Below, one piece after another: positions 1 to 23,148 of a stretch of DNA of 64,000 bases (its first letter is position 1; each line of letters starts with the position of its first letter). The position numbers and the translations under genes were made by a program. The notes under the pieces were generated by a model. That model was not told the DNA's origin. It saw nothing but the letters and a program-made list of their open reading frames with translations, and did no database searches. This DNA is from Octopus vulgaris (lineage: Eukaryota), in the NCBI GenBank assembly GCA_951406725.2, contig OX597833.1:23436001-23500000 (forward strand), given 5' to 3'.

Positions 1-1549
1 ACTTCCAGATACATAAATATCAGGTGTCCAAGATCAGTAGAGTTAGTTACATTCATTGCATGATTCTTATTTAAGCTACATGTGTATCATCTTAATATTT
101 CATATTTATGTGTATACAGACACAGCTGAGTGGTTAAGAAACTTGTTTCACAATCATGAGGTCCTAGACTCAATCCCACTGCTTGGTATCTTGGGCAAGT
201 ATCTTTACCATGACCTCAGATAATGAAATTGGGAAGCCAGAAACTGCATGTAAGCTCATGAGATAGATTGCATCTGCAGCTTAAAAGTCCAGCCTTGTCA
301 TATCACACTGACTTAGTTTGGGAATTGTCATATGTCTGTGGTATACTCATTCACTTATGTGTTGATTTAACAAATTCAACATTCAATTAAGCAAACAACT
401 GAATGCTCATCCTCAAAACCAATGGAGGAAATAATCTATCATCTTTATGATAGACTTGTTCTTACAGTCATTACTTTAAAGATAGTATAGGAGTCTATGT
501 AGAGATTTTTACTGCAACAACATACAGGTTGATTAACTACATAAACACTTACTCTCACTGGCTGCGGGTCTGAGAAAGCGAGGGTTAGGTATTTTTAAAG
601 TATTTGACCCTTTACAGATCCTCTGACACTAGTGAGGAGAAAGTTATCCTTAAACCAGAGACCTGGTCAGAAAGCTCGCAACAGAGTGAACTCTTCTAAA
701 AGCATCAAAGGTGCCAAGTGGTGGAGTTAAACTGGCCAATGGCAGCATTTGAACTCAAATGCAAAGTACTGGAACAAATACTGCAAGACATCCAGTCCAA
801 CATTCTTATTGTCCCATCAATCCAGCATCCTGGATTGATAACTTTGTTTTCTTCTTTTTTTTATCTCCTCTGAAAAGATGAAAGGTAGACCTTGATGTGA
901 TTTGAACACAGCATATAGTCAAAACAAATACCACAAGGCATCCTACTTGATCTAATAACTTCAATTCATTGCCCTAATTAACAGCTTTGTATTTTTACTC
1001 TAATTCAGGTAAGGTCTTAGAGCATTTTGCAGAATTGTATGAGAATTGTATGCATTTGGGGCAAGTCTGTCATCAGTAATCAATTGGCTGTACAGAAATT
1101 ATAATTGCTGATTCAATTTCTGACAATAAATAATCAAATCAAACATCTTTTGTATATATGACTATCATTTCCTCAAACAAACACAAACCCTATTCTTTTA
1201 CAACACAAACTCCAACAAGTCCACTTGTTGGTTCTGCTACGATCACTATCAAAAAAACCTTGAAATATATTAAAACAGGCTGGACAATAAACCAGATATA
1301 ACATACTCAGACTGATAGCACCAACAAGAAATGGGATGTGTGTGGCACGGTCCCAGCCTAGATAAAAGCATGACACATGTAATGTACTGGAACAAAGTTT
1401 ATGTGATTATATTTGTTCTCTTCACTTACTATTTATAAGACAACACACTCAACTTGACATTATATTTAGTATAATCCTTATTATCAATAAACTTTTTTGT
1501 AACACAATCTCTGAAAAATTTATCTTCACCATCCAAAATAGATACTTAC

Positions 1550-1590
1550 AAAGAAAGTATGCCTTCCTCTTTTTTTTATGGATTCAGCTT
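1550..1590 (-). CDS. Possible further small exon of the KNL1-like gene
   Basis: Strong tttgtag acceptor and gtaagt donor, open in phase 1. It is short and contains an A8 run. Confidence 0.35.
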
Positions 1591-1842
1591 CTACAAAAGT
1601 AAAAAAGCCATAAAATAAATTATTAATCAACTATATATCACAGAAATATCAGCAAATATGTGTGCACTATAAGTGTATTTTCTGCTATGTTTTCTTAATA
1701 CACTATTTTGAGAGCACAGACTTATTAGACATAATGTTCACGTGGAATGTAAACACATCAACATCATATATTGCTCAATTCCATGTAAGAAATAGAAACG
1801 ACAACTTTCACTCACACACGTGCATGCGTGTGTGTATATATA

Positions 1843-1884
<42 letters not shown>

Positions 1885-1888
<4 letters not shown>

Positions 1889-3760
1889 TGGGAGGAGGAG
1901 AGCCTGCCAAATGTTGACCCAGTAGAGGGACCAGCTATCCGAATAGACAGCTCCCTAGTAGATAAAACAATTAAGGATATGAAACCAGGTAAAGCCCCCG
2001 ACCCATCAGGAATCACTGCTGAGATGCTTAAAACAGCTGGTTATGCGGGCTATGGCCTAGTCACCCGTATTGTTAACCAGGTAGTTCATAATGGAGTCAT
2101 ACCCAATGACTGGCGTAGCAGCACCATAGTCAACTGCTACAAGGGTAAGGGTGATGCTCTAGATAGAAATAACTACAGGGGTATTAGAACTGTTGGATCA
2201 GGTGATGAAGACCACAGAGAGGGTCATAACCCATCTCATTAGGGAGAGAATTTGCTTAGATGAGATGCAGTTCGGTTTTGTGCCGGGTAGAAGCACCACT
2301 GATGCTATATTCCTGGTCCGACAACTGCAGGAGAAATACCTAGCTAAAGATAAACCCCTCTACATAGCTTTTGTGGACTTGGAGAAAGCCTTTGACAGGG
2401 TTCCCCGATCCCTTATCTGGTGGTCGATGCAGAAACTGTTGATTGACGAATGGCTAATAAGGGCTGTACAGGCTCTATACAGAGAGGCTGTCAGCAAGGT
2501 TAGGATTGGCAACGAATATAGTGAAGAATTCCGGGTAGAAGTAGGTGTACACCAGGGCTCAGCCCTCAGTCCCCTTTTATTCATCATAGTCCTCCAGGCA
2601 ATAACAGAGGAATTCAAAACAGGTTGCCCCTGGGAGCTCCTCTATGCTGATGACCTGGCCCTCATAGCAGAATCACTACCAGAACTAAAAAAGAAATTTC
2701 GGGTGTGGAAACAAGGGTTAGAATCTAAGGGCCTTAGAGTAAATGTAGCGAAGACCAAAGTTATAGTATGCAGAAAGGCGAACTCAGCACACACCCCATC
2801 GGGCAGGTGGCCCTGCTCGAGCTGTAGGAAAGGTGTAGGTAGAAACTCCATAAGATGCACCCAGTGTAAGCTATGGACGCATAAGAGGTGCAGCAACATC
2901 AAAGGGAAATTAACTGATAAGATAGCTTTCATGTGCGGCAGATGCACAGGGACAATAGACACCACAGACACTCAAAAATCAGATTCCATCACACTCCAGG
3001 GGGAGAAACTAGAAGTAGTTGATAGTTTCCGCTACCTGGGTGACCAAGTTAGTAGTGGGGGTGGATGCTCAGAGAGTGTCACCACTAGAATACGAATAGC
3101 CTGGGCAAAGTTTAGAAAGCTCCTACCCCTACTGGCGACAAAGGGTCTCTCACTCAGAGTGAAAGGTAGATTGTATGATGCACGTGTGCGAACTGCCATG
3201 CTTCACGGCAGTGAAACATGGGCCGTGACTGCAGAGGACATGTGTAGACTTGAAAGAAATGAAGCTAGCATGATCCGCTGGATGTGTAATGTCAGTGTGA
3301 ATGCACGACAGAGTGTAAGCACCCTGAGAGAAATGCTAGGCATAAGAAGCATCAGATGCGGTGTGCAAGCCTCCACTGGCTTCTGTGCCGGTGGCACATA
3401 AAAAGCACCATCCGAACGTGACCGATGCCAACCCTGCCTCGAATGGCTTCTGTGCCGGTGGCACATAAAAAGCACCATCCGAACGTGGCCGATGCCAGCA
3501 CCGCCTTGAGTGGCTTCTGTGCCGGTGGCACATAAAAAAAGCACCAACCGATCGTGGCCGATGCCAGACCCCTCTGGCACCTGTGCAGGTGGCACGTAAA
3601 AAGCACCCACTACACTCGCGGAATGGTTGGTGTTAGGAAGGGCATCCAGCTGTAGAAACACTGCCAGATCAGACTGGAGCCTGGGGCAGCCCCTGGCTCC
3701 CCAGAACCGTCCAACCCATGCTAGCGCGGAAAACGGACGTTAAACGATGATGATGATGAT
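1885..3760 (+). mobile_element. 5'-truncated RTE-clade LINE (RT, PHD-like finger, 3' UTR repeats, (GAT)n tail)
   Basis: ORFs 1820-2242 and 2193-3401 carry RT motifs (QFGF, AFVDLEKAFDRV, GVHQGSALSP, LLYADD, FRYLG) with a frameshift near 2190. The ORF breaks after 'CGVQ' and continues into ~62-bp 3' UTR repeats and a gatgatgat tail. Same family as the 36.9-40.4 kb element. Confidence 0.95.
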
Positions 3761-4080
3761 ATACACACACACATACATTGGCCTGCTCGCTTAGCCAGCG
3801 AGTTGGCGTCATTTGAAGGCTAAAAACAATGCGAAGCGCATTGTGACCAGTGATGTGTAGCAACATCTGATAGCCTGGTCGGTCTCAATAATCAGTGATA
3901 TACATACACACACACACATTAGGTATGGCTGTGTGTTTGAGGTTTACTTAGCAACCATATGGTTTTAAGTTCAATCCCACAGTAGAGCACCTTGGGCACC
4001 TTCCACAACAGCGAAGGACAACACAAAACCTATGTGGATTTGGAAGATGGAAGCTAAAAGAAGCCTGTTGTGCCCCCGTG

Positions 4081-4134
<54 letters not shown>

Positions 4135-5175
4135 CACGCTTGGTTATATTTGCATTTTAGCATGAAAAATGAACACTGCTTGTACATCAGTAATTTACAT
4201 AACAGAATTAACAACTGGAAATTGTGTCTGGTGCTGCACTGACAAATGAATCTTTACAATAAGCCAAAAAACTATTTTAATCCAACCCACTATGCTTATG
4301 TTCTTGTAATAACACCTTCCCAAATATTTGGGTAGTAGATGCGGTTGATGCCAGTGTTATGTCATCGGCACCTGTGCCAGTGGCATGTAAAAGACACCCA
4401 CTACACTCTCAAAGTGGTTGGTGTTAGGAAGGACTTCCAGCCATAGAAACCTTGCCAAATCAGATTGGAACCTGGTGCAGCTACCCCTCCCCCCACTTAT
4501 CAGTTTTCAGTCAAACTGTCCAAACCATGCCAGCATGGAAATCAGACATTAAATGATGATGATGTAACAACACATATTCTAATACAAACACCTAGCCATA
4601 TAAGTGCTAATAGAGTATTCTGTTACAGTAATTTAGGCAAGGTCTCTGTTCTGAGGAATAACTTATGTTTTAGCGGCCTTGAACACTGCTACCCTTCTTC
4701 CTCTGACTTATCATCATCCTCATTTTAACATGCTTTTCACAGTGGCAATAGGTTACCTGGGTCTCCATGGTTCTTTTTTATAGGGAGCCCGTGTCCTCAT
4801 ACATTGGCACCCATATACTTCATCTTGACATGGTTTCTATAACTAGATACCTTTCCTGTCTCCAACCTCTTTACAAAAGTGTATCAGGTGCACTTCATCA
4901 TGTTACTAGGACTAGAAAGGCAGTCATAATCTTGGCTTCACTAAGTCATGCAAAAGCAGTTAAAAAAATTGGAATGGTTTTGTAGAAAGTCTTCAATTAT
5001 TCAGGAACCGAACTATTTTCTGGTCCTGAAGAAGAGGCCCAATGTTTGAGATGTAAATTTGGCAATGATTATGCGATACCAGTGATTAAAGTTTTCAGAG
5101 AATTATACTGATTACACTCACACAATGTAACACACCCCACTTTGCAAAATAAATAATTTCTATTGCATTACTTAC

Positions 5176-5277
5176 CGTCCAGATATTTTCTACCTTCCTT
5201 GTAACATTTTATTTGAGCTTCAGAATATTCACTTGTAGAATTTAACAGTTCAATTTTTTCCTCAAAATCTTTCAATA
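5176..5277 (-). CDS. KNL1-like coiled-coil exon (LKDFEEKIELLNSTSEYSEAQIKCYKEGRKYLD)
   Basis: Phase-1 acceptor and g|gtaagt donor. Confidence 0.7.
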
Positions 5278-8200
5278 CTTTAAGAGAGCAAAAGCAGAAA
5301 AAGATCTTCAAAATATGATAATGTACCTAAATACAATTTTATTCAACTTTTAATTTTGACATCTTAATATCTAATAGCTGATGGCATATCAGAAGCACTT
5401 CTTTTTTCCCTAAAAAAATCTTGCAAAAATCTCTCCAAGTCTTATATGCAATGTTGAACCTATATTACATGCTTTAATGCACTAAAAAATATTCACCTGA
5501 ACATACGCTGCATTTAATATGCCATCAAATATAATAGCAATTTCCTTTTATACTATTTTCTTTAAATGTTAGATAACATTTACATGATTTACAATTGCTC
5601 ACAAAGCCATATTGGTTCTCGGTGTGTATAGAGCACATACCAAATGCAAATTGCCTTCCTCACTATGGCAAATTATCTTCCCCAATCTGTGTTACAACAA
5701 TAAACTGAGATAAAATGTAAACTCAAAGCCTTGTTTAACATGTTTTCCACTTTTTCTATAATTCTTTGTTTAGCATAAAGCAGCAAGCTAGCAGAATCAT
5801 TAGCAAATCAGATAAAATGCATAGCAGCATTTCTTCTAGTTCTTTACACTCTGAGTTCAAATCTTGCCAGGGTCAACTTAGCCTTTCATTCCTTCAGGAC
5901 TAATAAAATAAAGTACCAGTTAAATAGTGAGGTTGATGCCATTAACTTGCACCTTCTCTTCAAAATTACTGGCTTTGAACTCTGCAACAGACCAGTGTCC
6001 CATTCAGGGAAAATGTTGTGATCTCAATCACATGGAAACCCAAGTAACTGGTTTTATGAGGCTTGAGAGAAAAAAAGATATTATTTAGCATAGTGTAATT
6101 TTTAATGAAGGATTTCAATGAAAAAAATTCTTTTGAAAAATAAACGTTTATACCATTATCCAAACTATCTATTTGTTGGTCCAATTTTGAAGTAATGTCC
6201 ACTAATTGAGAATTGGCTTTTTCCATCAGTTTCAATTTATCCTAAGGGAAGAGAAAATAAGGAATAAATAATCAATAATCCTTTCTTAACTAGAGTTAAT
6301 CATTAAGATAATGATTCATTATTCACACTATGGATTTAATTTTAATTAAAATTCTTTGGTTCACAAGACTAAATCTATTAGTGCCCACTTTGTAAAAAAA
6401 TCCTAAATATTTCTCAAGTCAACTTAAATCTGCAGTAAGTCATACAATGCTTAGCCGATGAGATGTAACAAGATCGAAATACATCCAAAGTTATCACACC
6501 ATGAGTCAAAGATGAGACACTCTCTACTGCATTCTACCAAACATGTCTTTCCATCAGTTCATGGTACATTCTCCCCCACTTCATTATCATCACATATCTT
6601 CCTGTATTTAAGTGCCTTTAACAGTCTAGCACTTTCACATCAATTAAAATTTCACATACAACAGATTATATTCAGTTCATTCTTCTTCAATTGCTTGATC
6701 CCACTGCATGGTACTTTAAGTATGCATCTTCTATCATAATCTTGAGATGACCAAAGAATTATGAGTAAAACTTGGTTGACTGTATGAAAGCCAGTCAGAG
6801 GGACTGTTTCTGTTTTTGGATAGTAATAATGTTTACTATCATGATCCAGCCTCAGTTGCCTTTAGCAGAGTACACTTCATTGCGAGCATTCAAGATCTAC
6901 CTAGTATGAGGGTAACTTCCTTTCCTCCAAATACCAGTGTGGAAGGTTCTGTAAACATCATGGGCACTGCCCTTACTCGACTGACTAAATTTACCGTTCA
7001 CCTTTAACTTGTTTCAGTCATTGGTCTGCAGCCATGCTAGGGCACTGTCTGCAAGGGTTTTAGAGGAACTGCTGAGTTACAGGGATGTAAACAAGCCAAC
7101 ACCAGTTGTCGAGCAGGACATAGAAGGAACAAACAAAGACACAAAGAAACACACACACACACTTGTAGACATCATGCTTACACACAATTTCTCTCTACCA
7201 AAATTCACTCACAGAGCATTGGTTGGTCTGGGGTTAAAGTAGAACTTGTTCAAGGTGCTGCCTAGCAGGGCTGAGCCCAAATCCAAGTGGTTGCTAAGCA
7301 AGCTTGTTAACCTCACAGCCATATGTTCAAATCCCATTAAAACAGCATATTCTTAATAATGGTATTTTATTTACTTCAATGTATCAAAACTTGATAAGAG
7401 TTTATAACATGTCCAACTTACTGTGTAGGCTGAAGTCAAGTCATTAAAATATTCAATTTCTTTCTGCTTCATTTTCTTATCAGTTCTTTGCTTACACATT
7501 TTGAAATCTGCCAAAAGTTGCTTCTTTATATCTTCTTTCTGCAATTAAAAATAAAATATATTATATCATAAGAAAAAAAAACTGCAGGTAGAAGGTATGA
7601 AGATGAATATTAGGAAAATAAGGATGTTGATTGCAAGTTGTGAGGTGCAAAGAACAATGAAGCATGCATGTGCAGTGTATAAGAAATGTGCTGGAATGAA
7701 CTCCATTGAATGTACAGTTTGCATTGGGTGGGTACATAAAAATATAGTGGTGTGAAAGGTTAATAATAAATAAATACCGTTTGGGAAGATAAATGAAAAT
7801 GCATACTGAAAACTTCAAAACGTACTGAACTTGTCTTTTCCCTTTCTTCTAAAACATTTCTGAAACCATAGAGAAGCTCTGGATCTTTAAATTGTTTCAT
7901 AAATCTAAAAAATAATAAATATTCCTAAGATTAAACAGAATTGTACATGAAATTTTGTAAATATTTTTGAAGAAATATTTGGTTTTTCAATTTAAACATG
8001 TATGCTTCACTTTAAATGACAAAGAGTACGCAAACACTGCTACAAGAAGTGTTTGCTTTTCTATATGAATGAAGAATTACATCCCTAACCCTTTAGCAAT
8101 CAAACTAGCCATATCCAGCCTAAGTATTCTGTGTTATGTTCAAACCAGCCAGATGCAACCTCTCATACCTACCCTACATATGCTTCAAAAATAAGCAATC

Positions 8201-11200
8201 ACATCATGAAAATCTCGGAGCTGCAAGAAGATGTATGATTAATTCAAAACAATGTGAATAAATAAGTGCTGTTGACAGAATAATCTGAATGCTAAAGGGT
8301 TAATCAAAATGACTATGAATCTACTTTGGAAAACATTGTCAGAAAGGCTTTCTTAAACTTTGATATTGAAGTATTTGCTGATTAAAAGATTACACTGTTT
8401 TGCACACACAAATGCATATACACATATACAATTAGGTCCAAAGACACATTCACACTCAAGCACAAATATGCAGCCACACATGCACAGGCACATACACACA
8501 CTTGCTCAGAAGTACATACAGAAATCTGAACCATGAAATGATTTCATACTACAGACAAAAACAAACAATATTTAATATCCATCACCCATTTTTACTGCCC
8601 AGTTTTTTGGGAGGTCATGAAGGTAGAGTCCTTGGGCACCCTCTCCATATGATTCTATTAGAAGCAATTGTCATAAATTTCCTGCTGAATTCCCAAGCAT
8701 AACCAGCTAGGACTGTGAATGTTATCCAACCAACTCATTCTTAGTCAACTTTTTGATCTTCTGCTACTGGGTTTGCCTTGAAGAATCCATTTTGGGATTC
8801 TTTCCTGCAACATTTTAATCACGTGCCCATAGTGCCAAAATTGTGATCACTTAATGCAGAGAAATAGTAGCCCTATCTGGAAAGACTCCATAATCTCCAA
8901 GATATGCACTCTGTTGAATAACATCACTCTAGAAATTCTTCAGAGGAATCCCATTTCATTCTGTTGCATTCCTGATTCTACTTTATCAGTCATTATCCAA
9001 CATTCATGACAAATAGTAAGGATAAGCATAGAAACCAAATTGAAGATAGCAAATTTGTCTATTTGACCAATTTCATTGTTCTGATGAAGATAGAATGCTG
9101 AAGCTGGCATAATACTATAGTGTTGTGCCAGCTTCAGCATTCTATTTTCATCAATTTTTTTGATGAACATAAACATTTTATTTCTTTTTTAGTTTTTAAC
9201 ATTTTATTTTTGTGATAAGAAAATGCAGCTCTTTCATTTAAACATTTCATCTTAATCTTTCTTATTTAGGTTACTGAGCCTCATACCATTGAAGAAAAAA
9301 TGGAGTTAGCTTGCGTACTTCATCCTGAATATCAGTGTACTTTGAAAAGTCATGAACAGCTGAAATCTGATGGCGAAAGGTAATTTTTTTTCTTTAACTT
9401 TGTATTTAAAATTGCTAACTCCATTTTTTCTTCAATGGTATGAGGCTCAGTAACCTAAATAAGAAAGATTAAGATGAAATGTTTAAATGAAAGAGCTGCA
9501 TTTTCTTATCACCAAAATAAAATGTTAAAAACTAAAAAAGAAATAAAATGTTTATGTTCATCAAAAAAATTTTTCTTAAATGGCTTTTTAAAAATATTGT
9601 TAAAGTTCAAACAAAAAAATAATCCAGTAATTCTATAGAAAAAGTAAAAATATTTTCTTTAAAAACACAATATTAGCCACAGTCCATAAAATTTTTTAAC
9701 TCTTTTATTAAATAACTTTGCCCTTATTAAGCTGGTATTTGGAATATTTTGATGCAAGATTTAATATACATCCCTTTAAAAGAGGAAATTTATATCATAG
9801 AACCAGTGACAATCCTAAATGGGCAGGTTTTTTTTTCCATCTTTAATGTTTGTCAATGCTACCATGAGTAAGCTGGTTGTAAAAAGTTTCCATATTTGCA
9901 TGACATGCTGGAGCAGGTATTTTGCTCTGATCAAATGCCTTAAAAAACGCTAGTCTCTTTGGTACCTTTAACAAAATTTCCTCCAATTTGCAGGTAACTC
10001 AAATATATTGATGTGTAATGTATTACTGCAGCAACCCAGGATTTCTTTTCCTTCCATCCCACTCCACCTCAAACAAATGCCTTTTAGAAGTCCTTAACAT
10101 TTGTTTTGGGTTCTGATTAAGTCATAAAAAAAATTTTTAATCCTTACAAAAGAAACTTACTTTTTAAATGGATTCAATGTTCACTTTTCCATGTAAGCAT
10201 GGAAAAATGCACATTAAAACAATGATGGTTATGACAGCAAGAAATTAAAAGATGTCATTAATTTCCACTGTTTAAATATTTTAAGCTGTTATGTAAAATA
10301 ATATGCAAAGCCAGTAGTAAAAGTATGAAAATATACAAGTAACAAAAGTAGTTTACCACTGAAGTTTCATATATATTAGATTGCCGACACTCCAATGCGG
10401 CATTCCCTACTCGATCAATACCAACCAGAAACAGAAGATCTTCAATTGTTTCAACTTCCATCTACAATAAAACATGGGTTTGATTAAAACTTTTTTAAAA
10501 ACTAAATGATGAAAATTATCCTAAATTCTTAAATTTGAAATTTTTACACATCATTATAATCATCATATCTATTTTCCATGTCCGTGGGAGTTCAATAGAT
10601 TGTCCTAGCTCTAGTCAGTTCTTAGAGTTATAGCCTCTTTAACATGGTCAGGAGACCACACTTGCCTATTTCATTATATAGAGATGTTTAAGGTAGTGAG
10701 CTGGTTAAATTGTTAGCATACCAGACAAAATGCTTGGATGCATTTTTTCCAACTCTTTACAGTCTGTTCAAATCCTGTCATGATCAACTTTGCCTTTTCT
10801 CTTTTCAGAGTTGATAAAATAAAGTAGCAGTTAAGGACCGGAATTGAAGTAATTGACTGGACACTTCCTTAAAATTGTTGTCCTTGTACCAAAATTTGAA
10901 AGAAATGATGGGTGTTAGGAAGAGCATTTCCATCTGTATATAAATCTACAATGTCCCCAGAAATCAATAACTTATATATTTTAGTAAGTGCTTTATTCAC
11001 TATATGTAGCGAAAATATACTTTTCAAATTCACAATTTATCACTGTATTCAAAGTGGAATCTTCAATTATGATTTTAGTAAATTCTCATATGAAGTTGTA
11101 TATAATCAGGAACTTGTGTACATTATTAACACATGAAAAAGGCTGAATACAAGTAATTTGAGGAAGTAACAAGGTGTGTGTGTATTTGTCTCTTTGTCTT

Positions 11201-14200
11201 GACATCATGTGGTAGTTGTCAACAAGTACCTTTGTCATACAAAAGGTGCTCCTTGTTTCCAGTCTTCTGAGAAAACATATCAGGCCATGAGGGAAATATT
11301 ATGTTGCTCCAAAACAAGTGGGGTCAATGACAGGATGGGCATCAGGCTCTAGAAGATCTGCCTCATCAAATTCTGTCTGATTCATGCAAGTGAAAAAGTG
11401 GACATTATAACAAAGATGATATATGCACTGTATTTATAGCTGCAGTTTAAGTAAAACACATTTTTCTACAAACACTCTTAGATTACACCAAAATATTAAT
11501 TTCATGAATTAATATAGATAACAGTAGAGGAAAATTTTGTCTTTCTGGTAACATTTGTTTATCTTTGAGGTTCTACTGATGTAAATGTACATACATACAC
11601 AAACACACAAACACACACAATAACAGAAAAAGAATAAAACACAGAATACATTTATCATAAGTCTCAATTAAGAGAGGAAACAAGAACTGTTCACATCTAA
11701 TTTTCTGCATCTGCAGGAGAACTGGATTGATGGACCACACTTTCACGGTCTGTATTTATACTGAAAATCAAGATTGAGCAAGCATTTGCTCTACAACTGA
11801 AGTTCATAATGATTTGGTTAACTATTTTTCAACCCCACCATATCTTGGTTTAATGGAATTCATCCCAGTCAAAGGTGACAGTAATCATTGCGTCTGGCAA
11901 AAAATTTTATGCCTAGAAGGATTATCTCAACATAGTAGGCCAAAATATTTCTTAAGTATACATTGGTACTGCTGATTACAAAAACATTCTATCTACTCAC
12001 GATACCTTTTTACAGCTTAGTAAACTAAGAAAGAGTTAGGTATATTGGTCAACATATAGACCAAAGTACAAACCTTTCAGCTTGTAAGTAAAAAAACTGT
12101 CACTATAACCTGTTATGGCTCCTGATCTTGGCAATAATTTTGACATAAAATGTTCTGAATATTGATAAAGTCATTTTCATTATAAAGCATGTTCAAACCT
12201 GAAAATAATACTTACTAAAGACAAAGGCTTTTCCAAATGGGGAAAGTGCATGTTCATTAAAAGATGACTGCATAATGTAGAGTCTGAGATATTATTCAAT
12301 GTGGAAATGCTGTTTCTAATATCTGTTATACTTCTATCAGTCATCATGGAGCCAGATCTTGAAGGTACTTGTGAATATGGTTGTGGTTGTTTATTTTCCA
12401 GTGATAAATTCAAAACATCTTCATGAGAAATGTTTCCAATCAAAAAATCAGGTTTCTCATCCATAATATCAGACACATCTGAAATGATACAAAATATAGT
12501 TTATGAAATGATATAAAATATTAAGTTATATACTTTCTAGAGTATAGGACCATACATGTTAACATACCTTTCAAAATAAATAGCAGAAACAGAGAATGAG
12601 CCTATCTTCACAGGATACCAGAGAGAAGAGACTAAAATTTCTATGAAAGGAAAAAATAAGAAACTTTTCTCTTTGAACTGCTTTTCCCAATTTTATTAAA
12701 ACTTATACACATACGTAGTTTTCCATGTCAATTATGACGATCCTAATCATTTTATTGAGAAATTAATAATGAAACAGTTAAAAACCTTAAATCTTAAAGA
12801 CTGAAATTTTAGCCAATCAGATTTATCTATTCTCAACATCTCACCCACCAAACATATTTCCTGTATGTTTACATAGCAACCATTTTGGAGTTTAAGGTTT
12901 GTGTTTAATGTTTATGATTGGTTATAAGTTTGTAGAGCATCACAAAACTTCATTAATTTCCATCTTTAAAGGTTTTGTAACATCATCATTATTCATTTCT
13001 CAAAAAACAATAACAGTTTGTGATTTGTTGTAGTTGCAGGTCAAAAACAAAAAAAAACTGATACTCTCCATAATATCACCACAGCAAGAGAGAGGATGGA
13101 TCTGACTAATATATTATTAAAAAAATTAAGTACTTAAACATTTGTAATTGTTTATTGTTAATTTCTCTCTCTAAAAAGCAGTTGTGACTTTAGTACTTGG
13201 CATCAAAAACAAAATCTGTGTAGAAATTTTGAAATTAAAGTGGAAGCAATTCATACCAAAAAGATCTGATCATAAAATTAATGTAGTAATTTGTGGAATA
13301 TTATATTAAATCATTGACTTTAAAAGTATACATTAACATTCGATTAAAGCATAAAGAAAAATTATCTAAAAGGTATTGTATCTTAATATTATACACATTT
13401 ACAACAGTAAAATAACACAGTAGATAATAGAATTAGAAGGGGTGGGGTGGTTAAAGGTTGCGTGAGTGTGAGAGAGAAGGGATGAGTAAAACAGATGTAG
13501 AGGAGGGCTTTAGTAAATATGATGGTAAATATGTCAGACTCAGATTATGTCCAGCCAGGAAACACATTAACTACTTCAGTAACCATTTCTAATATTAATC
13601 TTATTTATCCGTCTCTAACTTTCTCACAGAACTCACCTTAATTAAAGCATTGATATTTTAATAATAAAATCAAACTCACCAGCATAGTCAAAATCAAAGC
13701 CAGTTTTCTCCGATACACTATTTGTATCATATTGAGTACCACTGATATCAGTTCTCAAACACTTCTCTGTAACAACTTTATCAGCCATCAAACTGCTCTT
13801 ATTAACAGTAACAGAATTACTGTTCAAAGAAGTTTCAATTAATTTTGAGCTAATTGTTTCAGAAGATGTTTGCCTTCGAGAAAATACATTTGAAGTATTG
13901 AAAGAAGAGTCATTTGATTTCTTAAAATTATGTTTTAATATGTTCTTTTTGATCCTTTAAAACACTTCCTTCTGTTCTGGTATTAGAAATATTGGAAATA
14001 GTGGCTTTAAAATCTGTCACTGAACCAAGATCATCTTTAGCAGTACTATTTGCTCTGAAACTAACAGACTGCATTCCATTTAATTCATATGGCATGTTTT
14101 CTTTGTCAATTATATTCTTTGGGGGAAGATTAGACCGATCAAAATTATTAGAAGATGGTAGAATACAGTTATCTGCTGGCAAATTTGAAGCACTAGTTTT

Positions 14201-17200
14201 AAGTTCTTTAGCTAATTTACTAAATTTACCATCATTAAACTGAGTAGAATCAAATAATTCTTGCGTGTTTAGAAATGATTTGGTGGATTTAGTTACAGTC
14301 AATTCTTTTGAAGTTGACTGCGATGTATCAACCAGAGTCTTTTTTGGACAGGACCTAGAAGATTCTACCATATAAGACTCTGTACTTTCTTTAAGAACTA
14401 ACTTCTCAGGAACTGATTCACTGGTAGTCACTGGCTGAACATGGTTCTTGAAATCAGATTTCTTTTCAGTTGGTTTGTTAATGGCTGGTTCAATTATATC
14501 ATATGTATTTGACTGTTTTGAAGGTATGTCAGAGGATTCAGAAACACAGGTCCTCTTTGATCCTGTCTTAATATGTTCTTTTTCATCCTTTAAAACATTT
14601 GCTCCTGTTTTACTATCAGTTACATTAGTAATACTTGGTCTACAATCACTCACTGAACCAAGACCATCTTTTGCATTACTATTTGATTTGAAATTATCAG
14701 ACGACATTCCATTCAATTCACATGGTATGTTTTTTTTTTTTTGTCAATTATATTCTTTGAAGCAAGACTAGGCAGCTGAACAATAGAATTATTAGAAGAG
14801 GGTGGCATATAATTATCTGCTGGTAATCTTAATGGGTTATTTAGGTCTTTAGTTGGTTTACAAAAACTTTCATCTTTATTAAACTGCTTGTTTTCACAAA
14901 AATTCTCAATATTTTCTACATCCTTCACATTGATAATCTCAACTGGTCTTTCACTTTCAGGAAAATCAGCAATTGTTATGGTGTTACAGTATGTCAAGTC
15001 CATATTACCAGCTGCATAATGAGTTTTATTGAAATAAATAGTTTTTTCATCATAGCTATTATTTTGATTGTAGTATCCAATTATATGACCATCAGGACTA
15101 CTGACAATATCATCCTTGCTTTCATTACATGCTGTGAGATATTTTCCCAAAGGTTTTGTTAAGTCCATTGAATCATTCCTATCAAAATAAACAGTATGGT
15201 TACCTTGATACAAAAATTTATCCAAATGAGGAGAGTCTGATAAAGAATCATTTTCTTTTGACTCATCAGGTGTTTGAATCTTGCCATCATCTTTTGTATG
15301 TGCATGAACATAATTATAAAGAAAAAGTTCAGTGCTCAATGAAGCGGGACAATTAAAATCATTTGTAAATAACAAGCTCTTTTCTGAAGAAGTAGCAGCA
15401 GCAGAAGATAGTGGAACATCTGCCTTGACTTTCTCTAGAAATGATATATCTTGTGCTTGTTTATCAGTATTGTTTGCCTCATACTTAGCTTGAGGTACTG
15501 AGTCTTTCACTTCAGGATCAACTCTGCAAACATTGATGTTTTCTTTATCCTCTATAGTTTGAGAAACAGTGGTTGATCTGGAGGTTATAGTAGAAACTCT
15601 AGTAATAGTTAAAAGAAAAAAGATTAAAAAATGTAATTTAGTCTTTAGAGTTATTCATTTAAGAATCTAGAGTATATTATGTTTTCAAAAACAAACATTT
15701 CATAAGTATTTTCATTTCTTTAATTAAAATATTAGTGAAGGCATGTAGCCAGGTGGTTAGGGTGTTGCACTCATGATTATAAGATCAAGGTTTTGATTCC
15801 TGGACCAGGCAGTGCAATGTTTTCTTGTGCAAAACACGTAATTTCAATTTGCTCCAATTCACCCACTTGTAAAAAAAAGTAGTTCCAGCAAGGCTGGGAA
15901 GTTATCCCTGCAACAAACAGCATCCTGTTGTTGTGGGGAGTGATGGGTTGTAATCTCAGTCAATCACCTATGTGCTAAGGAAACCAGCTTGGAACATGGA
16001 CTCATGAGAGATCTAAGCTAAGCTAATTAAAATATTAAATTGCTAAAATTAGGAATCCTGACAGCTGCGCATCATAAGCAAAAAAAAATAAAATAGGAAT
16101 AAAAAGAGCCATCACTTACAAGCAAATATGGGTAATTTACCATGTTTTGCTTAATGGTTTTAAGTGTATGTGTAATCATATAAAGACAGACACCTCAGTC
16201 TTCCCACACTTGACCCAGCAGAACAACTATGATGTAACAGTTTGAGGGAGAGTAAGGGCTGCACCAGCACATGAGTGGCACTAATTTCTGGAACAATAGG
16301 AAGTGCTTTACTCAAGAACACAATATGCCACCTAATCCAAGAATCAAACCCACGACCTTATAATTATGAGCCTAACACCCTAGTGCTAGGCCATGCATAA
16401 TGATGCATTTCTTTAACGCTTTGGAAACAGAGCCTTGTTTGAAGTTTCAGTACTCAGAAGACAGTGCCCTTAACACAAGCCCTACACAGAGCATGCACTC
16501 ATTTTTCAAAAAAAATTATAACCCTTAGGAGACAACTGGGCCAATCTATTGGCCAAAAAGTCAAATGAAGACGACGACAACTGGGCCGATCTGTTGTCTT
16601 TGTCAATCAACTTTTCAGCCGATAGACTGGCCCTGTCATCCCCTAGGGGTTAATACAGCACAATATATTTACATAACCAAACTAACTAGACAAAATTTTT
16701 AATGAACAGACACTTATAATGTTTGTAACTTAATAGGATCTTTAAAGACATTCTTAAATTTGTAACATCTAAGATATGAAAACACAATACAAGACAACAA
16801 TTTAAAATCTAACAAATAGAAAATTTGGCAAATTATCTAATTGAAAACGTTTGTGTTGTAAATTATCACAAAGAAACATGAAGGAAAGAAATTTAAGTCA
16901 AACATTTCCTGTGTTTCCATTAAAGCAAAAGTATATTTTGTAATAATTTTGACAAAATGATTTAATATATGCAGAAAAATACACATTATTTGATGGCATA
17001 AAAGACACACACACTGCAATTTCAACACTGCATATTGAGGAAAGAAGTTTCTAGAGTGTCAAATCATGTAATATTGATTTCAAATTCTGGTACAATGCCA
17101 TCAACTTTGGGAGGGGCTAAGTTGATTACATCGACCCCAGTGTTCAACTGGTACTTATTTTATTAACCCCAAAAGGATGAAAGGCAAAATCTACCCCAGT

Positions 17201-17945
17201 GGAATTTTAACTCAGGACATAAAGACAGACGAAATGCCAATAGGCATTTCACTCAGCATGCTACTGATTCTATTATCTCACCACCTGCTTAAAGCATGTA
17301 ATATTAGCTTATAGGAGACCCAAATTTGCATATAGGACCTGGGTTAATTTTTTAAACATTTCTTTGGGGTGTCTTACATGCTATCAAAAATGGTAAATTC
17401 AATTGCTTTGAAAAGTTTAAAATTCATACAAACTTTTCTGGAGACATCAAAATACTTTGGTTTAAAGGATTAACAGCAATGCGCCTTTCTTCATCACTTT
17501 CATCGTCTGAAATATTCTATAGAGAAAATATAAGAATGAATGCAAGTGATAAGAATAATAAAAAAGGAATGAGTAAGATTTAAATCTGGTGATTAGCACC
17601 AAAACGTTTATTATGAAGTGAATAAGGAATCGTTCTTTAGAAAAGGTATCATCATCATTTAGCATCCATTTTCCATGCTGGCATGGGTTAGAGGGCATGA
17701 TTGGAGAGCTGCACCAGGCTCAGTCTGTTTTGGCTTGGTTTCTTGGCTGGATGCCCTTGCTAACACCAACCACTCCAAAGAGTGTACCGGGTGCCTTTAA
17801 CGTGTCACCAATTTCATAAAAACGTTTTATTCCTAATAGCTAATTACATTGAACAAAATGGTCTTATTTAGAAACCACAAAGGGCATGATTCTATTCCTT
17901 ACATACTTGTGGGATTTGGTTCAGATCGCTAGTAACCAAAACCAT
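5176..17945 (-). CDS. KNL1: KNL1/CASC5/Spc105-like kinetochore scaffold, multi-exon; the 3' end probably continues left of 5176
   Basis: Predicted exons: 17945-17907, 17516-17434, 15598-13680, 12478-12216, 10461-10357, [9270-9379 on + strand], 7904-7826, 7538-7422, 6241-6154, 5277-5176. All have GT-AG boundaries with matching phases. Motifs HTVYF..SMDLT and KTIYF..NMDLTYCNT resemble TxxF-MELT-SHT units. TIEDLLFLVGID..RQSNI resembles the Spc7-domain start of KNL1 (recalled, not aligned), followed by a coiled coil. Confidence 0.75.
6154..6241 (-). CDS. KNL1-like coiled-coil exon (DKLKLMEKANSQLVDITSKLDQQIDSLDN)
   Basis: cttag acceptor, g|gtataa donor, heptad pattern. Confidence 0.7.
7422..7538 (-). 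CDS. KNL1-like exon (KEDIKKQLLADFKMCKQRTDKKMKQKEIEYFNDLTSAYT)
   Basis: tgcag acceptor, aca|gtaagt donor, 117 nt open. Confidence 0.75.
7826..7904 (-). CDS. KNL1-like exon (FMKQFKDPELLYGFRNVLEEREKTSS)
   Basis: ttttag acceptor (phase 2) and tca|gtacgt donor. Confidence 0.7.
9153..9571. repeat. Near-perfect inverted repeat: 158-bp arms (9153-9310, 9414-9571) with a 103-bp spacer
   Basis: The arms are reverse complements with about one mismatch. Confidence 0.95.
9270..9379 (+). CDS. KNL1-like exon in inverted orientation (VTEPHTIEEKMELACVLHPEYQCTLKSHEQLKSDGER)
   Basis: tttag acceptor and ag|gtaatt donor on the + strand. Its phases (0 in, 2 out) fit exactly between minus-strand exons 10357 and 7904. 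Confidence 0.7.
10357..10461 (-). CDS. KNL1-like exon (MEVETIEDLLFLVGIDRVGNAALECRQSNIYETSV)
   Basis: ttgtag acceptor, gtg|gtaaac donor, 105 nt, phase 0/0; Spc7-like sequence. Confidence 0.75.
12216..12478 (-). CDS. KNL1-like exon
   Basis: tttcag acceptor (phase 1) and tta|gtaagt donor (phase 0), within ORF 12180-12476. Confidence 0.7.
13680..15598 (-). CDS. KNL1-like large low-complexity exon with two MELT-like motifs and two apparent frameshifts
   Basis: ORFs 14713-15510, 13928-14716 and 13642-13827 join by single frame changes near 14735 and 13930. Donor g|gtgagt at 13679. Confidence 0.8.
17434..17516 (-). CDS. KNL1-like exon (NISDDESDEERRIAVNPLNQSILMSPE)
   Basis: Pyrimidine tract plus tag acceptor. 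The aa|gtttgt donor is phase 2, matching the acceptor at 15598. Confidence 0.55.
17907..17945 (-). CDS. Putative first coding exon of KNL1-like gene (MVLVTSDLNQIPQ)
   Basis: ATG at 17945, donor caa|gtatgt, phase 0 matching the next exon. Confidence 0.4.
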
Positions 17946-18819
17946 AGCCGTCACTTGCAAGCGAGCATGGTCTAGTAGTATGTATTCTGTTCTGGAGAAT
18001 TATTTTATGCATTTATGTACTAACGAGCAGATGTAGATACCTTTTCGGATATCCAACTCATTTTATTCACCAGAAAACCGAGAATATAACGGAACGTAAG
18101 AGAGAGAGAGGGAGGGAGATAAATAGATTGATAGATAGATACATACATACGTAGACAAACAGTTAGACAGACAGAGAGTGAGAGTGAATGAGAAAGACGT
18201 GGAGGCTACACCACCAACTGGACGGTATTTACAGCTGAGTAAAATGGGAATGAAATGTGAAATGAAGCGCCTTACTCAAGGACACAACGCACTACTCGGT
18301 CTGGAAATTGAAACCACGACTGTATGACCGTAAGCTGAACGCCCTAATCACCAGGTCACCTGAGTAAACAGATTAAGGCATTTTGCTCATTCTGCCATGT
18401 ATAATAATCCTGATTTAATATTAAAAAAAACACAAATGGTCAAATGGAAAATAGAAACAACGTTTGGATAATCTTTATTTGAATATTCCTCATATTAAGG
18501 GAATAGCAAAAAGATGGCAAACGGAGTCAATTCAGATAAAGTTTGAAGTGAAACTATGTCGCTAATTAATTATACGTATAATTAATAAAGACTGAAGCAG
18601 TAATAAGACCATTGGCATGATCAAGGAAGACCGAAATCACGTGACGTGGTAGTCCTAGCGGTGACGATGGCAGTTGTGTGTGCGTGTGTATGTTCGTGTG
18701 TCTGTGTTTGTGCCCTCATCATCACTTGACAACCGATGCTGGTGTGTTTACATCCCCGTCACTTGGTGATTCGGCAAAAGTGGCCGATAGAATAGTAACT
18801 AGGCTTACAAAGAAGGGCG

Positions 18820-18876
<57 letters not shown>

Positions 18877-19305
18877 CTGTTTTCTCTTTCTGTTTTTAAT
18901 TTAGTGTAAATTTTGACCGATCTCCATCTTGGTAGCAAGGTTGTGAAGAAAAGTATCAAGATTTAAATGTCATTTTTTAAATCTTAAGAAGATCTTGTAG
19001 ATTTCTATGCTTCCAGATATCGTGATCATTTGTAGCATTTGAAATAAAGATTTGCATTCTCTTCTCAAGATTCCAAGTTCAGCCATACTTTTCTTCCTCC
19101 GTCTTCCTGTCTTTGGATCTTTCCTTTTCCTATGTTTCTCACGAAGAGCTCCGCTCAAAACGTTAAACCCTCCTTCTTTCCTGAACGTCCAATAATACTA
19201 TACTTTTTCCACGTCCTCGCGTTGTGTTTTCTCTTTGTGTTTTCCTGTTTGGATTAACTATGTATGTATGTATGTATGTATGTATGCATGCATGCATGCA
19301 TGCAT

Positions 19306-19368
<63 letters not shown>

Positions 19369-19947
19369 CCAATAACAGTTAAGCTTCGTGCAATGGCCAT
19401 ACTCGATAACGAGGGGGCAGCCATTGTGTGTGTGTGTATGTATGTATGTATGTATGTATGTATGTATGTACGTGTGTGTGTGTGTGTGTATGTAAACTCT
19501 GACCAGAAAAATCTCATACTTGAGTTAGTTATTCTGTACACTCAGTTGATATCGAAAGAATGAATAGCGAAGCCATTGCCAGCTAGATTTTAAACTGGAA
19601 ACTCTAATGGTAACGACTCAGAAAATATAATAGATACAATAGATACAACGAAAAAGAAACGTCAATAACATAGAATACGTAAGAAAATTGTAATTATAGA
19701 AGCTATCATAAACAGCTGACTGATTTAGTTTGAGTGCTTGGCAAGAACATTTCAAATATATTGGGAGAAAAAGTCTTTACCTATATTTGTATTTGTTGAA
19801 AAACATTGCAATGCTAGACACAATATGTACGCGATTCTTGGCTGAAAAATAAAATCCTCTATTCCCACACCATCAGCAATTTCGAGTGGAAGAGTCCAAT
19901 TTTGCTACAAAACAGCCCAATCTTACTCCTTCACAAATCCACGTCTA

Positions 19948-19998
<51 letters not shown>

Positions 19999-20173
19999 CG
20001 TATGTCTGATTGTATGTATGGATGTATGTATGTAACCATCTATCAATCTTTCAATCAATCAATCTATCTAGCTATCTTTATATATATATATAGATAGATA
20101 GAGAGAGAGAGATAGAGCTATGTATTTGTATATGCATATATATATATATATATATATCTTTTTTTACATATCA

Positions 20174-20237
<64 letters not shown>

Positions 20238-21145
20238 GTATGTATATGTATATTGATGTAACTATTTATGCATGTCTTTATGTCTTTCTAAATCTACAGC
20301 AATGTATAATTTTATACACAACACACACACACATACACATGCATACACTCGCGTCTATAATGTTCATATGGTTGTATGTGTGAATGTTTTTTCCACATTT
20401 TTTTATTCTTCAGTAACACACAACCTAATACAATTTAATTATATAGGTTGAAAATAGGAAGCGTTATAAAGATATTCATTGTATTTCGGTTTTGCTCTTT
20501 TTTTTTTACCATTATTCTGCTTTCTATATTCCACAAAGTTCTCTCTATTTTCATCAACCACCCCAATTTTTTTTTTTTTTCACACTTTAAATTTTTCGCC
20601 TCATCGCTTTCTTTCCCATAAATAATTTTACTTCTCTTTCCTTTGCATCAAATAGCCAGTCTTTATTACACGGTTACTATTGTATTTTTATATACCCTTT
20701 ACTGTAAGTCTATATAAGACTTTCTCTATACTTGTGCACACTGGTTTTATATCAATCTGTCATCTGGCAAGTTTCTTAAAGTGAGAGTTGAACTCTTGTC
20801 TGACTCAGTACCGAGAGTCTTTTATCCATCCATGTTTATTATCATTTCATTCACGTCACACGATTCTCTTCAGAATAACCCGGCTAATTTCTGCATTCCA
20901 TTTCAGTCTCTTGACATTCGATTTCCAATAGAAGTTTTGTAAAGTCTAATCCTCTTTTTTTTTTCACTTCCAAACGTACATCCTACCTCCACGTTATTAG
21001 ATACTAAAATAAGTCAAATGTAATAGTAGTTGTGCGTAACAACATTGAGAGAAGGCTTGGTGTTGGACTGACAAGCATAAATCATGGGTTCAAATCCATG
21101 AGCGGGTAGCACGATGTTTCTTTGAGCATGACGCTTAATAATATC

Positions 21146-21378
21146 TGTTTCTTTATTACCCACAAGGGGCTAAACACAGAGGGAACAAACAAGGACATAC
21201 AAACGGATTAAGTCAAGTATATCGACCTAATTGTGTAACTGGTACTTAATTTATCGACCCCGAAAGGTTGAAAGGCAAAGTCGACGTCGGCGGAATTTGG
21301 ACTCAGAACGTTGCGGCAGACGAAATACGGCTACGCATTTCGCCCGGCGTGCAAACGTTTCTGCCATCCCGCCGCCTT
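21146..21378 (-). mobile_element. tRNA-derived SINE, family B (core gcctttcatcctttcggggtcgataaattaagtacc)
   Basis: A/B-box-like head (gagttcaaattcc). Further copies at about 5780-5965, 10690-10900, 17080-17285, 23708-23920, 23990-24205, 24232-24440, 26193-26428 and 47928-48147. Confidence 0.85.
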
Positions 21379-22082
21379 AATAATATCGTTGTTCCAGTGT
21401 AGCCATCTGAAAGTGAGTACTATCCATGAACTGGTGCAACCATCTCTCCCACCAGGGAGAGAGGGTTCTCATATGAGCCTTGGGGTCCACATAAGATTTT
21501 GTTGCTAAAATTTATCTGCAATAAATTTGTTATACTCTAACAAGGCTGCAGTCAAATAACAAACAAATAAAATAATAACAAAATATTCTAACAGTTTTTT
21601 TTAAATATAATTTCTTAATAATATTTAATAATAAAAATATAATAGGATCTTTTAAGCATTGAACATTTATGTGGGTTCGTCTGCATAAAATAGGGATCAA
21701 AGGGCAAAAAATGGTTGAGAACTACTGTCTTGGGTGTTTTGCAAAGTCAAAAAGACTGGAGACTAAGAGTTTGTCTCTCTGCTTCGCTAAAACAATTAGC
21801 GAAGGTATGTTACACGACACTTATTTATGGATGCTTGTGAGCAATAGCTGGGGATGATTTGTATAACAACCTTAATGTGTGAATATATGGTATATTCAGG
21901 GCTTTGAGTAAAAAGTAAATGGCACAAGTCAATCAGGACAAAATTAGAGATTTGTGTAGAAAAGTTTTTAGAGTCGTGAGTTGAAGAACTGGGAAAGTGT
22001 ACGACAAAACGGTTTCGTAAATGGAAGAATTTGTACAAAATGAGTATTTGGATGGTCGGTTTGCTACAATGTCACAGAAAAT

Positions 22083-22595
22083 GTAACTGGTACTTATTTA
22101 ATCGACCCCGGAAGGATGAAAGGCAAAGTCAACCTCGGCGGAATTTGAACTCAGAACGTAACGGCAGACGAAATACCTATTTCTTTACTACCCACAACGG
22201 GCTAAACACAGAGAGGACAAACATGGACAGACAAACGGATTAAGTCGATTATATCGACCCAGTGCGTAACTGGTAATTACTCTATGTTTAGCCCCTTGTG
22301 GGTAGTAAAGAAATATGTATTTCGTCTGCTGCTACGTTCTGAGTTCAAATTCCGCCAAGGTCGACTTTGCCTTTCCTTTTGGGGTCGATTAAATAAGTAC
22401 CAGTTACGCACTGGGGTCGATGTAATCGACTTAATCCGTTTGTCTGTCCTTGTTTGTCCCCTCTGTGTGTAGCCCCTTGTGGGTAGTAAAGAAATAGGTA
22501 TTTCGTCTGCCACTACGCTCTGAGTTCAAATTCCGCCGAGGTTGACGTTACCTGTCATTCTTTCGGGTTCGATAAATTAAAAACCAGTTGCGTAC
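22083..22595. mobile_element. Inverted pair of permuted/multimeric family-B SINEs
   Basis: 22083-22277 (minus) abuts 22283-22595 (plus). Both carry the tail-to-internal junction aaagaaataggtatttcgtctg. Confidence 0.8.
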
Positions 22596-23148
22596 AAAAA
22601 TTTCGGGCCTTTTGCCTAGAGTAGAAAAAGAGTATAATCGTAGAAGTTTAATAGTCGTCGTGGTGGTCGTGGTCATAGTCGTCGCCATCGTCATCATCAT
22701 CGTCATGCAGAGTGCAGTATGCTTACAAACCAGACTGTATACAGAAAACGTAACTTAATGATTAGGGTATTTGGTTCAAGAACGTAAGGTCGTGAGATCG
22801 ATTCACGTCGGAGCGTTGCATCCTTGAGCAAGATACTTAATTCCATGTTGCTCCAGTTCACTCAGCTGGCAAAAATGAGTAGTAGTACGTGTAATTCAAA
22901 TGGCCACCCTTGTTACGTTCTGTTTCATGCTGAATAAGGGCACACGTGTCTGTGGAGTACTCAGCCACTTGCACGTTAATTTCACGAGCATGGTGTTCCG
23001 TTGATCGGATCAATGAAACTCTCGTCGTCGAACCGACAGCGGTCTAGGTATACAGGGAATAATGTTTATAGAAAAGCATGTATGTAGAATAGTGTGGGTG
23101 TAGAAAACAATATACATATATGTGCGTGTGTATATATATATATATACA

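Follow-up and report, generated by a model that had tools for sequence, protein, structure and literature searches.

The inverted repeat that leaves a complete KNL1 exon on the wrong strand in Octopus vulgaris lies in a 5′-truncated, multiply broken duplicate of KNL1, and the parent gene on another chromosome carries a single arm. Template switching is the likely origin of the repeat, which has likely persisted because this copy no longer makes KNL1; we put the probability of this overall reading at roughly 0.85. Judged from sequence comparison, the repeat is likely an ordinary neutral scar in a pseudogene.

The inverted repeat and the wrong-strand exon

All coordinates are positions in the window (the whole stretch of DNA analysed, 64,000 nucleotides), the gene lies on the - strand, and genome searches used the same genome's assembly. 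A repeat finder placed inverted arms at 9153-9310 and 9414-9571 with a spacer of 103 bp, confirming the 158-bp arms that the original prediction had described (157/158 positions complementary); the whole structure occupies 419 bp of sequence without gaps. The longest exact inverted match between 8000 and 10500 is 99 nt; 200 shuffles averaged 12.9 and never exceeded 22. On the + strand, 9270-9379 forms a 110-nt exon bounded by AG and GT that encodes VTEPHTIEEKMELACVLHPEYQCTLKSHEQLKSDGE; the gene strand at the rearranged exon holds the acceptor and 41 nt (9454-9414), and thereafter reads through to a stop, just as had been claimed of an exon whole solely on the + strand. The phase argument behind that claim also stood, with the upstream exon (10461-10357) ending in phase 0 and the + strand supplying the AG/GT-bounded 110 nt. 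Joining 10357 straight to 7904, as if the exon were skipped, shifts the frame and brings a stop after 4 codons. Adjoining the left arm is a spacerless palindrome of 36 nt per arm (9082-9117/9118-9153, 33/36). The features of the region are listed below, where C2 denotes the chromosome carrying the parent locus.

9414..9571, - strand: original arm (A), comprising 117 nt of intron, the AG acceptor and the exon's first 41 nt (9454-9414); collinear with C2:76017445-76017604, the 41 nt being identical to C2
9311..9413, + strand: spacer (S), comprising the exon's last 69 nt, the GT donor and 34 nt of intron; inverted relative to the gene as assembled, matching the opposite strand of C2
9153..9310, + strand: inverted duplicate of arm A and the derived arm of the pair, matching the original at 157/158; absent from C2
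9270..9379, + strand: the full 110-nt KNL1 exon, lying on the wrong strand and made of arm copy and spacer; located by tblastn of the homologues P0002 and P0009
9118..9153, + strand: inverted duplicate of segment B, derived, forming one half of the palindrome that has no spacer, 33/36 to 9082-9117; C2 and the repeat copies L008-L010 differ here
9082..9117, - strand: original segment B, part of a dispersed intronic repeat, aligning with L008-L010
10357..10461, - strand: 105-nt exon preceding the rearranged exon, ending in phase 0 with a GT donor
7826..7904, - strand: exon downstream of the rearranged exon

The 110-nt exon at 9270-9379 differs from C2 at 9340 and 9360, where the window has C/C and C2 has T/T, and the spacer as a whole differs by 3 substitutions and a 2-nt indel; the C2 counterpart of segment B carries a 20-nt deletion.

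An older inverted repeat of similar shape was observed at 22085-22279/22394-22589 (arms of 196 nt, 90%, spacer of 114 nt), and the spacer there seems to belong to the same repeated element. C2 itself holds a palindromic stretch of ~800 nt with 91% identity at 75981122-75981915 (L011:1122-1915).

The parent KNL1 gene and its broken duplicate

A search of the genome with window 9000-9700 revealed a 97%-identical locus on C2, with one arm only and with the exon complete and in the orientation of the gene. Matches to the arm and spacer fell at two loci only, the window and C2 (best 40 of 68 candidates scored), as did those to the neighbouring exon (9/9 candidates scored); no third copy of the locus appeared among these scored matches. 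The two loci share a duplicated segment of about 30 kb, which runs 12.3 kb past the window start and ends at a 5′ breakpoint at 17859. Window and C2 copies diverge by 2.63% (683 substitutions in 25,964 aligned sites); their flanks differ, the breakpoints are sharp, and N is absent in 84 kb and 70 kb. The following features of the duplicate fall in the window.

1..17859, - strand: portion of the ~30-kb KNL1 duplication that falls inside the window, in 9 collinear blocks against C2:76005518-76037438
17431..17516, - strand: first KNL1 exon kept, residues 111-138 of P0002
13682..15598, - strand: remnant of the large exon

The KNL1 label given to the gene from sequence alone was borne out by homologues. 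Protein searches returned O. bimaculoides P0002 (1,916 aa), O. sinensis KNL1 isoforms (2,041 and 2,162 aa) and one Argonauta protein, with source names including 'Kinetochore scaffold 1' and 'Knl1 C-terminal RWD domain' (UniRef, P0002). A Pfam scan of P0002, by contrast, gave 0 families; Pfam MELT reached 17.8 bits on P0003, under the cut-off of 30, and was not found on P0002. We did not treat P0003, P0006 and P0007 as independent of the assembly. Both P0002 and O. sinensis P0009 can be followed on C2 from N-terminal exons through to the last exon, and the N-terminal (RVSF) exon matches C2 only (best 40 of 1,581 candidates). The parent protein carries SILK at 18 and RVSF at 47 (P0009, P0002), which we take to be KNL1 N-terminal motifs, together with two MDLT motifs. 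The premise that KNL1 needs the exon at the window locus did not survive this comparison: the copy with all exons is that on C2, and the one in the window has lost its 5′ end and meets a stop ahead of this exon.

The C2 large exon is itself frameshifted in the assembly, lacking residues 860-977 of P0009 and containing a 56-nt tandem copy (C2:76010280-76010660, L014:280-660). Collapse of the assembly at ~363-nt repeats is the likely cause, with a broken allele as a possible alternative; with the C2 copy frameshifted, either the assembly or the allele appears to be imperfect at repeats. The C2 large exon (L013:8900-10000, L014:1-300) consists of tandem units of ~121 codons, the number of which appears to vary by species and isoform (1,916, 2,041 and 2,162 aa).

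The window copy has lost residues 1-110, including SILK/RVSF. The N-terminal exon was not found in 84 kb around this copy, and comparison of window 17860-23000 with the region upstream on C2 gave six short matches only (43-145 nt). The large exon remnant is frameshifted near 14733 by a run of 13 A and, at 13931, has lost 2,578 nt out of frame; TAA stands directly at this join, some 4.5 kb ahead of the rearranged exon. Towards the C-terminus, the exon for residues 1841-1881 is lost, and a TGA stands at C20:23426691 where O. sinensis P0008 has Cys; the 13-A run and this TGA could be sequence errors. The copy fails as a working gene, having no complete frame from SILK/RVSF to the C-terminus, and it shows features of an unprocessed pseudogene: an intron-bearing duplicate, a parent elsewhere and disabling lesions. 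Across 1,100 codons, pN/pS between window and C2 is 0.77, and that of the C-terminal exons is 0.47, values that do not amount to proof of neutrality. Amino-acid changes number 23 on the window branch and 18 on the C2 branch (p = 0.53), and 12 and 6 in the C-terminal exons (p = 0.24), neither difference being significant.

Neither spacer orientation would yield KNL1 from this copy, because of the upstream stop, the missing N-terminus and the exon loss. The statement that flipping the spacer rebuilds the exon was exactly right at the level of the exon, but the flip yields no protein, since the frame is stopped upstream and the N-terminus is missing. That exact restoration is what speaks for a working KNL1 that carries an invertible exon with a function, or a splice switch under ADAR control. 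We consider such a switch extremely unlikely: in either orientation the frame is stopped at 13931 and the N-terminus absent, the copy with all exons has one arm and no repeat, and the junctions resemble microhomology joins rather than conserved recombinase sites. The proposal of a functional invertible exon in KNL1 is accordingly set aside.

In O. sinensis, an intact 2,162-aa KNL1 lies on a 208-Mb contig, and fragment models P0001 and P0008 lie on a 55-Mb contig. On this evidence the duplication is common to O. vulgaris and O. sinensis, because the fragments bear residues of the window type and P0008 breaks off at the exon missing from the window copy; by inference, the loss of exon 1841-1881 is probably common to both species as well. 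As to spacer orientation in O. sinensis, neither P0001 nor P0008 spans the rearranged exon. P0001 (XP_036366877.1) fuses a C2H2 zinc-finger ORF, corresponding to window 35818-34931 (-), to the KNL1 duplicate at 17504-14117 (-). The join uses an acceptor other than KNL1's, and the expected donor was absent from the window ORF by the motif tried; it may be a prediction artefact or real read-through. Window 34817-58375 holds a cluster of C2H2 zinc-finger ORFs, several of them frame-split (e.g. 45514-44238, 53180-52509).

The repeat in sequenced DNA and the orientation of its spacer

We searched DNA contigs from 4 runs (X1, X3, X6 and X9), covering 4 studies and three organism codes, of 24 runs listed. 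A contig crossing the spacer-arm join (9310 or 9281 to 9443) with 0 mismatches was present in 4/4 runs, the left join was crossed in X3 (8800-9182) and X9 (9124-9192), and a single collapsed 158-nt arm contig was found in X1, X3 and X6. Junction contigs have 29-30 letters on the short side, just below the 31-letter bridging rule, as is to be expected of contigs that stop at a collapsed repeat.

Abutting inverted repeats resemble fold-back chimeras. The locus has two inverted repeats that abut, one with nearly identical arms, as would a fold-back or chimeric-read artefact of assembly. A fold-back artefact is nonetheless unlikely because the spacer-arm junction occurs in all 4 runs, each from a different study and together spanning three organism codes. 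The B palindrome, moreover, has 3 mismatches, one of which varies among runs (position 9146: T in the assembly, the palindrome-pairing C in X3, X6 and X9, and both letters in X1). Taken together, we give an artefact of either kind negligible weight. Fold-back had been named as the outcome that would undo the original prediction, and the junction in these DNA contigs instead establishes the arms as real DNA.

The single-arm joint (9120-9415) with C2 letters (9340, 9360, 9382) was found in X1, X6 and X9, and other variant letters in the runs were those of C2 at 10 of 13 checked. X3 contained window-type letters only; neither C2-type letters nor the single-arm joint appeared in it (some 80% of the run was read, and contigs drop variants); X1 may be the assembly's own sample. 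X3 is the one observation that would suit a reading of the C2 and window copies as alleles of one locus, misplaced on separate chromosomes. This we judge highly improbable, given the different, gap-free flanks and sharp breakpoints, the presence of both copies on two large contigs in O. sinensis, and the occurrence of both types in 3/4 runs.

At 8800-9059, window-type contigs were approximately 2-3 times deeper than C2-type contigs in X1 and X6 (e.g. 129.9 vs 49.9, 31.3 vs 11.1), and the depths were about equal in X9. Extra collapsed copies are a possible source of the excess in X1 and X6, depth not being copy number.

The assembled and flipped spacers share every k-mer up to 99, with 0 distinguishing k-mers at k = 31, 63 and 99, and contigs cannot separate the two orientations because these k-mers are all common. 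The arms could therefore be real and the spacer either placed backwards by the assembler or polymorphic, the exon then being intact on some or all chromosomes with an inverted copy in the intron; even so, the copy would still be a pseudogene. Besides the shared k-mers, the C2 copy in this assembly shows breaks linked to repeats. The arms show 1 difference against 4.2 expected at the age of the duplication (P = 0.08), which would fit exchange between arms, and 4/5 differences from C2 are common to both (P = 0.045 if the arms are as old as the duplication). Reversible spacer inversions are described in yeast (PMC8604942), but the spacers in that account are just 2-5 bp, and the recurrent human inversions treated in PMC3961182 involve large repeats. 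Any long read should span the gap-free 419-bp structure, and a younger origin of the repeat would account for arm identity equally well. On balance, a backwards or polymorphic spacer seems unlikely, though it is the alternative we take most seriously.

Origin of the repeat and its predicted hairpin

C2 has the order A, S, short linker, B; the window has A, reverse S, reverse A, reverse B, B. At the A/S join there is a microhomology of GC, and at the others TT, TGATGAA and CTATAG. Reverse A finishes in TTCATCAA-AAAAA-TTGATGAA, whose TGATGAA is shared with the start of reverse B. The B palindrome was considered as a feature of the repeat family and rejected, as 0/3 copies are palindromic; it is derived, because L008-L010 continue like C2 at the palindrome site. 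The A arms differ at 1/158 and the B arms at 3/36 (Fisher p = 0.02; p = 0.09 without 9146), and on these small counts the A repeat would be either younger than B or homogenised. Arm homogenisation is described in yeast (PMC8604942).

A template-switch path, inferred from these junctions, would run as follows. Synthesis on the gene strand would have proceeded forward to the end of A (..GTTAGC); there, through the GC microhomology, it would have jumped 103 nt ahead onto the other strand and copied S and A in reverse over 261 nt. A short fold-back at TTCATCAA-AAAAA-TTGATGAA would then have given TGATGAA, priming on the reverse strand of B, from which 36 nt would have been copied back before synthesis resumed on the forward strand at CTATAG, which is itself palindromic. 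Possibly the B palindrome formed earlier, in an event of its own. Should the spacer in fact lie the other way round, the first switch would become an intra-strand fold-back, with the same junctions and an unchanged verdict.

In line with template switching, the ancestral state, kept on C2, is single-arm without an inverted repeat, and there is little or no prior homology at the switch points; against it, microhomologies of 2 nt are weak evidence. The spacer is inverted relative to C2 in the assembly. In the four-point model as presented in PMC5453318, such an inverted repeat with inverted spacer is type 3-1-2-4 (23% of human-chimp events), and an inverted repeat without spacer inversion, which a flipped spacer would make here, is type 3-2-1-4 (31%); the model covers short single rounds, not several. 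A narrow literature search found no published account of an octopus KNL1 repeat.

Folded in silico, a transcript of the locus gives a long duplex of -294 kcal/mol (z -32), in which 41 of the 158 stem nt are exonic and match the parent exon exactly. Coleoids show extensive A-to-I editing. The original expectation of a long duplex between the arms stands as a predicted fold of real DNA; the splicing control or recoding of KNL1 attached to it is unsupported, the copy being truncated and stopped. Seven runs guessed as RNA contained 0.09-0.32 of query words, which has no bearing on expression.

The duplicate might nevertheless be transcribed, perhaps by zinc-finger read-through, and its hairpin edited by ADAR or diced to siRNAs acting on the parent KNL1 mRNA. 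It would then be a newly born trans-regulator, whose edited dsRNA or siRNAs match 41 nt of the parent and whose spacer may toggle among individuals. The very stable predicted hairpin, the identity of 41 stem nt to the parent exon, the zinc-finger join in P0001, and the precedent of mouse oocytes, in which pseudogene endo-siRNAs regulate the parent gene (Au76/Rangap1, PMC6223193), are each consistent with such a role. Conversely, the copy lacks the 5′ end of KNL1, the P0001 join is possibly a prediction artefact (other acceptor, donor not found), only 41/158 nt are exonic, and there are more long inverted repeats nearby (e.g. 22085-22589, 90%). We regard a regulatory hairpin as a long shot.

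Read as a scar in a pseudogene, the locus is a clear example of template switching with the ancestral state kept in the paralogue, and of little importance as it stands; it would gain importance if the hairpin were transcribed and regulated KNL1. It also flags that KNL1 was duplicated recently, as seen in this genome and O. sinensis, and that the assembly carries the KNL1 large exon in broken form, and it counsels that a 'wrong-strand exon' be compared first with its parent copy.

Among known systems, the C2 parent resembles the KNL1/Spc105 kinetochore scaffold in its SILK at 18, RVSF at 47, two MDLT motifs and source names, unlike the window copy, which has neither SILK/RVSF nor an open path to the C-terminus. 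The window copy is like an unprocessed pseudogene in an interchromosomal segmental duplication, with introns kept, 5′ truncation, an out-of-frame deletion, exon loss and a parent elsewhere; the neutral evolution of that kind compares here with a pN/pS of 0.77 and non-significant branch counts. Au76/Rangap1, as described in PMC6223193, is likewise a pseudogene with potential long dsRNA matching its parent, but only 41 nt match the parent mRNA here, and the KNL1 hairpin is known from DNA and a predicted fold. The repeat is of the same kind as the template-switch events 3-1-2-4/1-3-4-2 (PMC5453318) and FoSTeS/MMBIR, being as assembled an inverted repeat with inverted spacer; the events in that account are shorter, and the one in the window has 261 nt copied back and a second fold-back. 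Both parts of the locus, the duplicated pseudogene and the template-switch inverted repeat, are of known kinds.
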